IMG/VR virus record: IMGVR_UViG_642979322_000022
DNA: 64,000 nt
Reading direction: 5' to 3' (one strand)
From: a virus
Taxonomy: Duplodnaviria > Heunggongvirae > Uroviricota > Caudoviricetes
Of this stretch, positions 18,001 to 21,000 are shown piece by piece (position 1 is the stretch's first letter; every line of letters begins with the position of its first letter). The position numbers were made by a program.

Positions 18001-21000
18001 TTCTTCAGTGCTGCTTTTGTTCGACCGATAAGGTCCTTATACAGCGGCTTGTCCACACCCCAGCGGGTTGAATTCTCCGAGGCACCACTCGCGTCACTGT
18101 ATGTGCCATCGGCTCCGGTGGTGAACGCTGAACCACCACGACAGCACGGAACCAGCAGAATGCCCGCATTCGCCGGTATAAACGGCAGCAATTTTTTGGC
18201 GATATGCAGCCCCTGCCCCACGGTTCCGTACTGCCCCTTTGACAGGTCCGCTTTCGGATGGTTAAGGCGGCTCATGTCCTGCACATCATGCAGACAATGG
18301 TCCGCCGGAATGATGTCGTTATATTTACAGGCGACACCGCCCGGTGTCACCGTACTGCGGCGCGCCAGCTGCTTAATACGCGGGTCCGGACGGTCATATG
18401 TCTCCGGCAGCGGAAGGCCTTCACCATATGCCATGCTGTTTGACTGCCCCGCCAGAACCACAACAAAGTAATACTCCGGGTCGCTGGTGGCACTGATTAC
18501 TGCACCTTCTCCACCTGTCGGCTTCACCACAACAGGTGTGCTCACATCACCTTCTGCGACAATCGCCTGAATAAGTGCTGCGCCATCATCCGTATACGAA
18601 GAAAACGGCCCACCGTATGGTTGCCATCCTTCACGAATTTTTTGCGCAAGTGCATCAGCAAGGTCTGACGGCGATGCCGCCCTGACCACATCGTAATGTT
18701 TAAATGTCATGAATCCTCCCGGCCGGGATAGTGTACTGAATCAGATAAAGAGCGGGCTGAAGTCCGGAAGTTACAGGACAATGGCAGAAGGGAGACTTAC
18801 AGCCCGCAATTCGAAAAAGGCCGCGCAGTTGCGCAGAGTGATTACCATGGGGTATTATTCGCCAGCTGAAATATTACTTCACGTTTTGTTGTTTATTCCT
18901 TGCCGCCCGCGTCTCCCAGCGCGGGCTTTTTTTGCCCATAAAAAAAGCCCCTCCGGAGAGGGGCTTCGCTACGTGTCTGTTAACCATATGCATGGTGCCG
19001 GGTGCCTCCCGGTGAGTTCAGTATCAGCACCTGAACCCGCACAGAAAGGATAGAGTAGAAACACCTGCGCTGATATGCCCCTCCGCTCAGGGGGATTCAC
19101 CATGCCAGTTTCTTTTAACAAACTCCCCGCAAACCAGACAACTGTCAACCGTCTGAATTGTGAGACATTTAAAATTTTCGGGGCGTACCTGATACCCGGT
19201 TAATTCTGCAATATCATCCGTTCTGACTGACTAAATCCTGTACTTCCCTGACCGTCTGCTCAAAACGTTCAGTCTCCAGCTCAACGCCAGTTGCACGACG
19301 CCCCAGCGCCATCGCGGCTTTGACTGTCGAACCCGACCCCATGAAGAAATCTGCAACCAGGTCACCCGGACGACTGCTCGCACTGATTATCTGCTGCAGC
19401 ATTTCTGCCGGTTTTTCGCACGGATGTTTCCCGGGATAGTACTGCACCGGTTTATGCGTCCACACATCCGTGTACGGCACCTGCGCCGTCACGCCAAAAT
19501 ACCGCCGCAGATGCTTATATTCACTCTGTAGTTCCGCATACTGCCGGTTCAGTGAAGTATACGTCTCCAGCAGCTGGTGGTGGGGCTTCTCCAGTTCACC
19601 CCGCTGATGCTTCTCTTCTGCCACCCGGGCAAACAGCGCCTGTAATTTCAGATAATCGCTTTCGTCCGGCAGCTGCCACTGACTGGCACTGAACCAGTGC
19701 GACACCATGTTTTTCTTTCCTGTGGCATCCACTATCTGTTTTGCCGTTATCCCCAGAGCAGCACGCGCATCACGAAAGTAAGAAATCAGCGGAGCCATCA
19801 CATGCTGTTTCAGTGCCCTGCCCTTCGCCTCATACCCGGCATCTTTCGGACGATACGGCCCCTGATAATGTTCCGCGAACAGAATGCGCTCTGTGGCGGG
19901 GAAATACGCCCTCAGGCTTTCCTTGTTGCACCCGTTCCAGCGTCCGGACGGCTTCGCCCAGATAATATGGTTCAGCACACTGAAGCGTTCACGCATCATG
20001 ATTTCAATGTCAGATGCCAGGCGATGGCCACAGAACAGGTAAAGACTTCCGGCAGGTTTCAGCACCCGCCAGAACTGCGCCAGACACTGGTCCAGCCACT
20101 TCAGGTAATCATCGTCGCCCTTCCACTGGTTATCCCAGCCCTCAGGCTTCACTTTAAAGTACGGCGGGTCCGTGACTATCAGGTCAACAGAATTTTCGGG
20201 TAACGACCGGATAAATTCCAGGCAGTCAGCGTTGATCAACTCACAACTGGATATTTTTACAGTGTTAAACATGGATCATTAAGCCTGTCTCTGATAGGCT
20301 CATTCTGCTTTTGCGCAAAGCAGTGGGCCTGAGGTTTGCTTGTGATCCAGACGCATGAGCAGATGGCTGGTGAGTGCCCCTAACACCCACCAGCCGCCCA
20401 TTTACCACAAATAAAAAAGCCTTCAGGACTGAAGGCGTCTGTAACAACCGAACTGATAGTCTGCCAGACCCGCCATAACAAGCTGGGTCAGTATTAACTG
20501 GCAGCGTTCGCGTGAAAGGTAAGTATTCTGCGCAATCTCCCCGACTGTCGCCGGTTCGGTGACGCTTAATTCATTAAACACTGCTCTGGCGGTTTCTGTC
20601 ATATCCTGCTGTTTCAGCATGTCTTTTTCCCTTTTTCGGTTAACGTGACACACCAATAACTCTTGTCAAAAAAGCCAGCAAGCTGAAAGACCGGTATTCA
20701 CCGCCACCAGCGCGTTTACTGTACTGACGCGATTTCAGTCATAAAAAACCCGCCATGCGGCGGGGTGTAAAAAATCTTCTAACGTCAGGCATAAAACGCC
20801 CATCGTTAGGGCAAATTTACCACAGATTCGGGAAAAATCAACAAAGCTATCTGGTCACCTTTTTCAGTTGTTGTTCTGCCCATGCTTCTTCAATATCAAA
20901 CTGCACCACCAGCGTATCGTAAAAACGTTTAACTGTTTTTTTCCATGTATCAAGAGATATGGCATCGGTTACATTACATATGGCATTAAATGCCTCCGTT

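Follow-up and report, generated by a model that had tools for sequence, protein, structure and literature searches.

Organization of the late region

The gap analysed here separates a DNA methyltransferase gene from nanS-p in the late region of a lambdoid prophage, within a 64-kb stretch of phage DNA which we call the window. All the flanking features lie on the minus strand, which is that of the late genes:

20847..21668, minus strand: gene of the Q antiterminator, 273 aa (Pfam PF03589 Antiterm, E 7.6e-50)
20749..20764, minus strand: terminator-like hairpin downstream of Q, candidate tR' (terminator scan)
19214..20272, minus strand: gene of an N6/N4 DNA methyltransferase (MTase), 352 aa, left flank of the gap (Pfam PF01555, E 6.9e-44)
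16764..18710, minus strand: nanS-p, 648 aa, sialate O-acetylesterase with DUF1737, SASA and DUF6645, right flank of the gap (Pfam)
18715..18719, minus strand: nanS-p ribosome-binding site GGAGG, with the ATG at 18708-18710 (read from the sequence)

The Q gene marks the start of the late operon. The order given by the initial annotation (Q, MTase, gap, NanS-p, holin, endolysin, Rz) was reproduced by our Pfam and ORF calls, and the lysis genes past NanS-p encode a P21-type holin, a lysozyme with a SAR-like N-terminus and Rz. The ends of the MTase and NanS-p-type esterase ORFs leave a gap of 503 bp at 18711-19213, exactly as annotated. In BLAST comparisons with Stx2 phages (L001, L003, L005), homology starts at window 20763-20766, i.e., at the hairpin downstream of Q, which we infer to be tR'; the MTase DNA is 96-97% identical to that of the Stx2 phages LC567830 and LC567818.

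This gap had been described as empty, with neither tRNA nor ORF. The absence of tRNA was confirmed with ARAGORN over the whole 64-kb window and with Rfam over 14000-24000 at E<=1, while the same tools detect three tRNAs in relatives. As for ORFs, mechanical ones of 114, 59, 42 and 39 aa do exist inside the gap, but none of them is conserved across 68 distinct homologous gaps. Neither a tRNA nor a conserved small ORF thus speaks against an empty slot, and yet two non-coding RNA genes are present: 201 of the 503 bp form a full-length match to the Rfam family STnc100, and in the remainder lie another sRNA gene, convergent to the first, and the promoter of that gene. Taking together family membership, homology, junction positions and the conservation of the terminators and of the antisense -10, all computed here, we consider it highly probable that the gap is a conserved module of EHEC-type lambdoid prophages, an sRNA dyad that separates the nanS-p-lysis cassette from the late-promoter/moron region. 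The module was found in 2488 of 5426 complete E. coli genomes, and a sequence identical at 100% is present in many sequenced EHEC genomes.

The sense sRNA

The first gene of the dyad is encoded on the strand of the late genes:

18934..19134, minus strand: STnc100-family sRNA gene, Rfam RF02076 (cmscan 148.1 bits, E 1e-33)
19151..19160, minus strand: conserved box CACAATTCAG, with a TTAAAT-like element ahead of it, kept in 34 distinct upstream contexts
19020..19076, minus strand: hypervariable centre of the STnc100 RNA, a candidate for target recognition (82-copy comparison)

The match spans model positions 1-206 of 206, and its score compares with a gathering threshold of 47 bits, which places the sequence within the family. 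It is a homologue of EcOnc27/sRNA103, EcOnc05 and PasD. STnc100 occurs at the equivalent position in Sp5, Sp4, Sp15, phi296, Stx2a/d phages, L006 and L007, and the Northern probes used for EcOnc27 and EcOnc05 (Tree 2014) fall within the STnc100 matches of those prophages. Expression, Hfq binding and trans effects are known from the literature on these homologues: EcOnc27 and EcOnc05 are discrete Hfq-associated RNAs by Northern and CRAC, homologues migrate at ~222 nt and ~235/247 nt in Northern blots, and the STnc100 copies of EDL933 are transcribed, one of them being confirmed by Northern blot (PMC5331693).

Judging from the Northern sizes of the homologues, the box at 19151..19160 is likely the 5' end of the sense sRNA; the start of ~19160 which these sizes imply conflicts with the Rfam model start at 19134. 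The RNA, expected to bind Hfq, would then probably run from ~19160 to ~18940, with two near-invariant structured arms around a hypervariable centre, and would end at the minus-strand intrinsic terminator. Comparison of 82 copies revealed 20 distinct central segments between the near-invariant arms, and the helix closing this segment covaries (ATCAGC..GCTGAT versus CTGGTG..CACCAG). A consensus scan of the minus strand gave no sigma-70 promoter for STnc100, and reading of the sequence gave no TGGCAC-N5-TTGC of a sigma-54 promoter. The TTGACA at 19148-19143 was considered as a -35 and rejected because there is no acceptable -10 at 16-18 bp and the motif is not universal among the copies.

The back-to-back terminators

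Two opposed rho-independent hairpins had been noticed in the gap from the start, and they are the top two terminator-like sites in our 6.5-kb scan, in which 16 sites were observed versus 6.6 +/- 2.9 expected:

18940..18967, minus strand: intrinsic terminator of the sense sRNA (terminator scan), with a T7 tract at 18946-18940
18905..18933, plus strand: intrinsic terminator of the antisense sRNA, with a stem-loop at 18905-18926 and a T7 tract at 18927-18933

For the sense terminator, the scan places the stem at 18967-18944, with three T's paired with GAA, around a core G+C stem at 18964-18947; across loci, this stem exists as at least four different, fully complementary sequences. The stem of the antisense terminator also varies in a compensatory manner (GCGC..GCGC, GCAT..ATGC, GCCCGA..TCGGGC) and is always followed by 6-9 U. 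More than 100 related loci retain both hairpins while showing compensatory changes in the stems. They are the terminators of two convergent sRNA genes and, since these genes end at them, they constitute the back-to-back terminators of two genes, with 6 bp in between. Convergent genes with adjacent terminators, located between the Q/pR'/moron region and nanS-p and upstream of the lysis genes, are what characterizes a dyad. Rfam also returned OmrA-B (26 bits) and anti-hemB (25 bits) over the hairpins; both are below threshold, and we dismissed these identities, reading the alignments as driven mainly by the terminator hairpins.

In the lysogen, we infer that the sense terminator would halt unmodified polymerase arriving from the MTase or the cargo before it reaches nanS-p and the lysis genes, and that Q-modified polymerase would pass it. 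The antisense terminator would, for its part, shield the cargo region from antisense transcription.

The cargo site

The initial annotation saw in the whole gap a vacant equivalent of the stx site. The likeness of the gene order to that of Stx-converting phages was borne out and could be made exact by alignment; the hairpins, however, do not bracket the insertion point. The cargo position lies at the edge of the MTase gene, upstream of the dyad and outside the hairpins:

19201..19213, minus strand: 13-bp trailer past the TGA stop of the MTase gene, common to Stx2 and tRNA-bearing phages (BLAST ends)
19168..19200, no strand assigned: 33-bp joint ACCGGGTATCAGGTACGCCCCGAAAATTTTAAA, the actual cargo position (BLAST junctions, sequence comparison)

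From 20763 to 19201, across the MTase gene and these 13 bp, the window and Stx2 phages share 96-97% identity. From 19167 to 18500, it is 88-90% identical to the Stx2-phage region that starts 42 bp past stx2B. As expected of a moron insertion site, the two flanks converge on one junction, the left homologies ending at 19201 and the right ones starting at 19167-19177 (L001-L005). The left BLAST end points are identical in L001, L002, L003 and L004, and with a junction probe ~840 E. coli genomes match only as far as base 19201. Because the flank homologies stop at 19201 and resume at 19167, the tRNA and stx2AB cassette (1651 bp) replaces window 19168-19200. It had also been said that stx sits just upstream of nanS-p, which is imprecise: stx2B ends ~510 bp upstream of it, with the same module in between. 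The other ~457 bp of the gap are conserved backbone, found in Stx and non-Stx phages alike.

In relatives, the cargo at the joint consists of three tRNAs, of tRNAs with stx2AB, or of TerB-DUF3927. The window has no homologue of stx, TerB, DUF3927, AraC or CAAX anywhere in its 64 kb, and the prophage is the cargo-less state of the moron site. An identical joint junction is present in 102 of 5426 E. coli genomes, and the joint is homologous to the sequence past the DUF3927 gene in L006, L015 and L076. The single joint which carries cargo in the relatives, just upstream of the dyad, is present here in its cargo-less version. This version most likely arose once, when a DUF3927 module became joined by its end, at a TTAG/TTAA microhomology, to the trailer of the MTase gene.

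The predicted antisense sRNA and its promoter

The second gene of the dyad is on the opposite strand:

18864..18933, plus strand: predicted ~68-70-nt sRNA, EcOnc08-type by sequence (homology to Sp4/Sp15)
18829..18858, plus strand: antisense promoter, with -35 TTGCGC at 18829-18834, an 18-bp spacer and -10 TATTAT at 18853-18858
18821..18836, minus strand: palindrome CTGCGCAACTGCGCGG followed by CCTTTTTCG, containing the antisense -35
18663..18933, plus strand: putative long antisense RNA of ~271 nt, homologue of EcOnc08/21/42 (published size; estimated 5' end)

The antisense segment shares ~93-94% identity with Sp4 and Sp15 along the 109 nt that run from the A-run to the palindrome, and 18864..18933 corresponds to the Hfq-CRAC peak of EcOnc08. 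The published Northern probe (Tree 2014), which matches without any mismatch in Sp4, maps with 29 of 35 matches to window 18825-18859, and the RNA it detected is on the plus strand. Homology, probe site and a strand opposite to the late genes all assign the RNA to the EcOnc08/21/42 class. The probe sits upstream of the predicted ~68-nt start, and the RNA that it detects is of ~271 nt. Such a long form would probably begin inside nanS-p and would cover the ribosome-binding site and the start codon of this gene; reading of the sequence gave no convincing promoter for it near 18620-18660.

The shorter sRNA would be driven by the conserved sigma-70 promoter, convergently to the sense gene, and would end at the 18905-18933 terminator. 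Exactly 18 bp past TTGCGC, we found TAAAAT, TATTAT or AAAAAT in 124 of 125 loci (43 distinct sequences), a count in which only the -10 is independent, the invariance of the -35 being by construction because the viral-contig loci were chosen by an exact 25-mer that contains it. The 5' end of AsxR is 6 nt past its -10 by RLM-RACE (Tree 2014 supplement), and length prediction from the promoter gives back the published 51-60 nt of AsxR, AgvB and EcOnc03. The palindrome forms a sense-strand hairpin in the nanS-p leader and is exact in seven of nine independently chosen sequences (the window, L001-L004, L006 and L007); in Sp4 and Sp15 the loop is AATA instead of AACT, with unchanged stems. Its T.G wobble on the sense strand reads as a C.A mismatch on the opposite strand.

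By position, the predicted plus-strand sRNA is the equivalent of AsxR/AgvB. We rejected its membership in the AsxR/AgvB/EcOnc03 class, which is defined by a conserved ~42-nt 3' region (..GTATCTCATGC.ATTGCCCGAACCCA.TCGGGC), a variable 5' end of 14-18 nt and a length of 51-60 nt: the body and stem sequences differ, and the Rfam scan of 14000-24000 gave no RF02702/RF02703 (AsxR/AgvB) match at E<=1. What the two have in common is limited to promoter position and overall design. No Rfam family matches the plus-strand sRNA, and a literature search by its sequence fragments returned no paper.

Comparison with known dyads

The dyad architecture itself is already known and was published in 2014. Convergent sRNAs were described 3' of the moron site in Sp3, 4, 5, 9, 10, 11, 15 and 17 (Tree et al. 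2014, PMC4104026), and a review refers to them as dyads of Hfq-binding sRNAs that separate the late promoter from the lysis genes (PMC7873438). EcOnc27/sRNA103 is directly downstream of stx2B in Stx2 phages. In Sakai Sp5 (L004), STnc100 at 6423-6628 (+) is directly followed by AsxR at 6630-6682 (-), between stx2B and ECs1207. The window resembles this EcOnc27/AsxR dyad (Sp5, 933W-type; PMC4104026) in its position between the moron cargo and nanS-p, the family of its sense sRNA, its convergent partner, its back-to-back terminators and its antisense promoter (TTGCGC, 18 bp, -10). It differs by the absence of stx or tRNA cargo upstream, by a partner that is not AsxR (other body and other terminator stem) and by another STnc100 centre.

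A closer likeness of the antisense RNA, mentioned above, is to EcOnc08 and EcOnc21 (with EcOnc05 in Sp4) and to EcOnc42 (Sp15, 3' of stx1B; PMC4104026, PMC7547250): besides its ~93-94% identity, the Northern probe region, the type of terminator and an STnc100-family sense partner are shared. The central segment of STnc100 and its terminator-proximal part differ, and upstream of the dyad Sp4 has an AraC regulator with tRNAs and Sp15 has stx1AB, whereas the window has no cargo. PasD1 and PasD2 of EPEC E2348/69 are reported to be structurally related to STnc100 (Zhu, Shabalina and Storz 2026 preprint, 10.64898/2026.05.13.724894). Like the window sRNA, PasD2 is found in lambdoid prophages, not far from Q and beside a gene for a sialic acid esterase; PasD is reported as too divergent for BLAST and as having other seed regions (10.64898/2026.05.13.724894). 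Finally, the lambdoid moron sites downstream of pR', as PMC4104026 relates them from Juhala et al. 2000, resemble the present site in that a single junction accepts alternative cassettes, every one of which has a terminator behind it; the window site, unlike those so described, is unoccupied and its adjacent terminators belong to sRNA genes and not to a moron.

The value of these results is mainly for annotation: RefSeq is blank over the gap and phage annotators call spurious small ORFs there, in an apparently empty region beside the stx site that corresponds to two regulatory RNA genes. Junction mapping gives the cargo site an exact address, a joint of 33 bp located upstream of the dyad. To the known dyads we make a minor addition, a conserved antisense promoter which predicts a plus-strand sRNA of ~68 nt; the rule of TTGCGC, 18 bp and -10 predicts where the antisense sRNAs of the various cassette types start and how long they are, and could aid the systematic annotation of dyads.

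Alternative explanations

That the ~500-bp gap as a whole is a vacant slot for cargo, with its insertion point bracketed by two opposed terminators, agrees with the gene order of Stx phages, with the lack of tRNA and conserved ORF, and with a moron site devoid of cargo. We regard it as extremely improbable, since Stx phages have their cargo upstream of both hairpins, at 19168-19200, and toxin phages keep the remaining 457 bp downstream of stx2B and stx1B, these bases including an Rfam sRNA match of 148 bits as well as the homologue of a second sRNA; as formulated, it is refuted by the STnc100 match, the Sp5 arrangement and the junction mapping. A related idea is that the joint is the scar left by an ex-Stx phage on losing its stx cassette, for which speaks the 96-97% identity of the MTase and trailer to Stx2 phages up to the same left junction. 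The 33-bp filler (ACCGGGTATCAGG...), however, matches neither end of the tRNA-stx cassette but the sequence past DUF3927 in TerB-DUF3927 modules, and the dyad and its Stx2-phage counterpart share only 88-90% identity. Moreover, this joint is found alongside at least two different Q modules and is therefore an old, spreading recombinant; such a scar seems quite improbable. Small proteins encoded in the gap by the mechanical ORFs of 39-114 aa are as implausible as the vacant slot. The 42-aa ORF does match phrog_27294 (E 5e-15), two others weakly match tiny PHROG families of unknown function, three small CDS are called in the annotation of phi296, and ribosome footprints exist on some EDL933 STnc100 copies (PMC5331693). 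Against this, the set, length and frame of the ORFs vary among the 68 distinct homologous gaps, alignment indels are not multiples of three, the conservation pattern suits RNA helices, and such PHROG families are the expected product of automatic gene calling over conserved non-coding DNA.

Less easily set aside, though still unlikely, is a module acting primarily in cis. The structured STnc100 element and its terminator would serve as an attenuator or insulator, silencing nanS-p and the lysis genes for any polymerase not modified by Q; the antisense RNA would pair with the nanS-p leader and thereby repress translation, and the stable RNAs would be by-products. The module is always between the late promoter or morons and the nanS-p and lysis genes, the STnc100 arms are near-invariant in sequence as well as in structure, conservation is higher in the nanS-p leader (18711-18836) than on either side of it, the ribosome-binding site would be overlapped by the long antisense form, and the authors of the review call the reason for the dyad arrangement unclear (PMC7873438). 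On the other hand, homologues bind Hfq and accumulate as discrete RNAs, AsxR and AgvB work in trans (PMC4104026), PasD, a relative of STnc100, has RIL-seq partners, overexpression of sRNA103 alters fimZ and espA (PMC7873438), and the hypervariable STnc100 centre resembles a diversifying seed. Action in cis is compatible with the sRNA dyad and does not exclude it.

Within the sRNA dyad reading, a more speculative proposal, to which we give little credence, concerns the EcOnc08/42-type partner. It might be a separate cassette class of the anti-sRNA system: a ~68-nt Hfq-dependent sRNA from an AsxR/AgvB-type conserved promoter, whose single-stranded 5' region CUGAAAUAUUACUUCACGUUUUGUUGUUUAUUCC would have a new specificity. 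The nanS-p leader would in addition be acted on in cis by a longer isoform. One possibility for such a class, suggested by its sequence, is that the plus-strand sRNA copies the seeds of core sRNAs and does not sponge them. The plus-strand sRNA has an 11-nt identity with nt 40-50 of Spot 42 and a G/U-rich, GcvB-like stretch.

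Gene Order and the Content of the Gap

The genes on either side of the gap are arranged as follows, in late-gene order:

20847-21668, minus strand, Q antiterminator (Pfam PF03589)
20423-20656, minus strand, 77-aa ORF with no Pfam family (phrog_331, function unknown)
19214-20272, minus strand, N6/N4 DNA methylase (MTase; ORF listing and Pfam)
18711-19213, gap between the MTase and NanS-p genes
16764-18710, minus strand, NanS-p-type esterase (Pfam DUF1737+SASA+DUF6645)
after NanS-p, minus strand, P21-type holin, lysozyme with a SAR-like N-terminus, and Rz (ORF listing and Pfam)

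The order Q, methylase, gap, NanS-p, holin, lysozyme, Rz proposed in the initial annotation was confirmed by the ORF listing and Pfam, as was the absence of a tRNA from the gap, ARAGORN finding none in the whole 64 kb. The sole inaccurate word in that description was "empty": the Rfam scan placed inside the gap a full-length match to the small RNA STnc100. The gap had looked empty because RefSeq annotates nothing there, the records listed (H31-H60) having no feature in it despite the 148-bit match. The elements of the gap are:

18934-19134, minus strand, STnc100 (RF02076), full length, 148.1 bits, E 1e-33 (gathering score 47 bits)
18967-18944 followed by T7, minus strand, terminator-like hairpin (6.5-kb scan)
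18905-18926 followed by T7, plus strand, terminator-like hairpin (6.5-kb scan)
18829-18834, plus strand, antisense -35 TTGCGC, inside a palindrome
18853-18858, plus strand, antisense -10
from near 18864 to 18933, plus strand, predicted antisense sRNA of ~68-70 nt

The two opposed hairpins noticed initially are real and are the top two terminator-like sites of the 6.5-kb scan, which returned 16 sites against 6.6 +/- 2.9 in shuffles. That on the minus strand ends the STnc100 RNA as its 3' terminator; it would also shield nanS-p and the lysis genes from unmodified polymerase but let the Q-modified enzyme read through. Scanning viral contigs with a 25-mer of the palindrome region yielded at least 120 loci, all with back-to-back terminators built from at least four different, covarying stems per strand, each fully complementary, the antisense stem always being followed by 6-9 U.

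The Sense RNA and the Published Module

Every relative examined with Rfam has STnc100 at this position: Sakai Sp5 (6423-6628 of the locus L004, between stx2B and ECs1207, 208 bits), the Stx2a and Stx2d phages LC567818 and LC567830, phage phi296, Sakai Sp4, the Stx1 phage VT1-Sakai (Sp15) and two unrelated E. coli chromosomes. In Sp5, AsxR (RF02703) begins one base past the STnc100 match on the opposite strand, and this pair is EcOnc02/EcOnc27, the convergent sRNAs encoded 3' of stx2B described by Tree et al. 2014, with the same organisation reported in Sp3, 4, 9, 10, 11, 15 and 17 (PMC4104026). The module of the window is another copy of this published module. In Sp5 and Sp4 the STnc100 matches enclose the sites of the Northern probes published for EcOnc27 and EcOnc05, so that, judged by probe position, STnc100, EcOnc27 and sRNA103 are names for one kind of RNA, an equivalence stated also in PMC12711010. 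The coordinates in Table S2 of Tree 2014 refer to an older Sakai sequence and not to NC_002695.2; from the probe and Rfam positions in the Sp5 and Sp4 loci (L004, L005), the offset is ~0 at 1.18 Mb (Sp4) and ~+142 at 1.268 Mb (Sp5).

Matches to the module occur in 2488 of 5426 complete E. coli genomes; a 631-bp probe was 100% identical in O145:H28, O103:H2, O157:H7, O45:H2 and O121 genomes. EDL933 carries 11 transcribed STnc100 copies, one of them confirmed by Northern blot (PMC5331693). The 5' end of the sense RNA would be the conserved CACAATTCAG box (19160-19151), a start that we infer and that agrees with the 222 and 235/247 nt measured on Northern blots. The arms of the RNA are near-invariant and its centre is hypervariable (19020-19076, minus strand), with 20 variants in 82 copies and a covarying helix that closes it (ATCAGC..GCTGAT vs CTGGTG..CACCAG); this centre looks like a swappable recognition segment.

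The Antisense RNA and Its Possible Targets

The plus-strand element is not AsxR, AgvB or EcOnc03, from whose published sequences both its body and its stem differ, and the Rfam scan gave no match to RF02702 or RF02703 at E<=1. It is instead ~93-94% identical to the matching segment of Sp4 and Sp15, in which the Hfq-CRAC peaks EcOnc08/EcOnc21 and EcOnc42 and a ~271-nt RNA have been reported. The Northern probe for EcOnc08/21/42, which matches Sp4 at 35/35 positions, aligns to 18825-18859 with 29/35 matches and puts the RNA that it detects on the plus strand. Among the viral-contig loci there are at least four types of antisense body cassette, and 124 of 125 loci (43 distinct sequences) have TTGCGC followed exactly 18 bp on by TAAAAT, TATTAT or AAAAAT; the -35 lies within the 25-mer that selected these loci, and the independent evidence is thus the -10 and the terminators only. 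The 5' end of AsxR, mapped by RLM-RACE, is 6 nt past its -10. With this spacing, RNAs of the AsxR, AgvB and EcOnc03 types are predicted to be 53-60 nt long (published lengths are 51-60 nt) and those of the type in the window 65-73 nt; the predicted span in the window matches the EcOnc08 peak. For the ~271-nt form a start farther upstream is required, near 18663 within nanS-p, where no convincing promoter was seen; this form would overlap the RBS and start codon of nanS-p.

Hfq binding and discrete RNAs are known from the literature on homologues. In its long form the antisense RNA may work in cis on the leader of nanS-p; that the module as a whole acts mainly in cis seems rather unlikely. Homologues act in trans, AsxR on FnrS and AgvB on GcvB; fimZ and espA were altered when sRNA103 was overexpressed, and PasD, related to STnc100, has RIL-seq partners. 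In the window, an 11-nt identity, UUACUUCACGU, links 18874-18884 (plus strand, nt 11-21 of the predicted sRNA) to nt 40-50 of Spot 42 (239-249 of the K-12 spf locus), and a G/U-rich run, GUUUUGUUGUUUAUU, follows it in the sRNA. An identity of this length, in a comparison picked post hoc, was reached by 2 of 2000 shuffles and is a lead, no more.

The nanS-p leader from palindrome to start codon (18711-18836, minus strand) is near-invariant in Sp5, the Stx2a/d phages and phi296. Conservation is lower in the sRNA bodies flanking it and at the beginning of the coding sequence, which suggests that both leader and antisense RNA constrain this stretch.

The Cargo Site

The proposed synteny with Stx phages is right and has now been resolved to single bases. 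When window 20900->18500 was compared by BLAST with the relatives' loci, the end points were sharp. Window 20763->19201, which takes in the hairpin after Q and the MTase gene and stops 13 bp beyond the TGA of the latter, is 96-97% identical to Stx2 phages, and 19167->18500 is 88-90% identical to the region starting 42 bp past stx2B. As left homology ends at 19201 and right homology begins at 19167, the 1651-bp tRNA(Met/Ile, Arg, Arg)-stx2A-stx2B cassette (3350-5000 of the Stx2 phage locus L003) replaces, by alignment, the 33 bp at 19168-19200. The reading of the gap as a vacant slot bracketed by terminators is incorrect. The left junction is the same in Sp5 and phi296, where the MTase is a 124-bp remnant.

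Across ~105 viral-contig loci this position holds 2-3 tRNAs, tRNAs with stx2AB, TerB-DUF3927, or nothing, in many combinations, with AraC or CAAX genes further upstream, ahead of the tRNAs; cargo variants co-occur with several Q types and either antisense cassette type. No stx, tRNA, TerB, DUF3927, AraC or CAAX gene is present anywhere in the 64-kb window. When 5426 complete E. coli genomes were searched with a 121-bp probe across the joint, 102 had the identical "empty" junction and ~840 more matched only as far as 19201. Every cargo-less locus has this one joint, GATGATATTGCAGAATTA abutting ACCGGGTATCAG, and among these loci are at least two different Q modules; TTAG at the break is common to both parental sequences. 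Recent loss of stx was considered as its origin and rejected, since the 33 bp match the sequence after DUF3927 in other prophages; we infer a single old join that removed tRNA/TerB-DUF3927-type cargo.

Homology with the Stx2 phages and Sp4 begins exactly at the terminator-like hairpin 3' of Q (20763-20766; hairpin region 20749-20766, minus strand), upstream of which the Q genes differ; this fits exchange of the Q/qut module at a mosaic boundary.

Coding Potential and Other RNAs

Mechanical ORFs do exist in the gap (114, 59, 42 and 39 aa), yet a comparison of 68 distinct homologous gaps shows their number, length and frame to change, and against profiles they match only tiny PHROG families of unknown function. 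We rejected them as real proteins; they are best explained as automatic gene calls over conserved non-coding DNA. Likewise, the phi296 record has three small "hypothetical proteins" called across the sRNA genes (L002 3476-3906), and these, with the PHROG families for such calls, are likely over-annotations.

Elsewhere in the window, Rfam matches at gathering level were the sok antitoxin RNA (24043-24217, minus strand, 111.7 bits) and DicF (31332-31383, plus strand, 75 bits); an isrK-like match (23805-23884, 20 bits) was sub-threshold. The nanS-p-holin interval (16059-16763, minus strand) has a terminator-like hairpin at 16460-16444, and PasA-type sRNAs have been reported between nanS-p and holin in EPEC.
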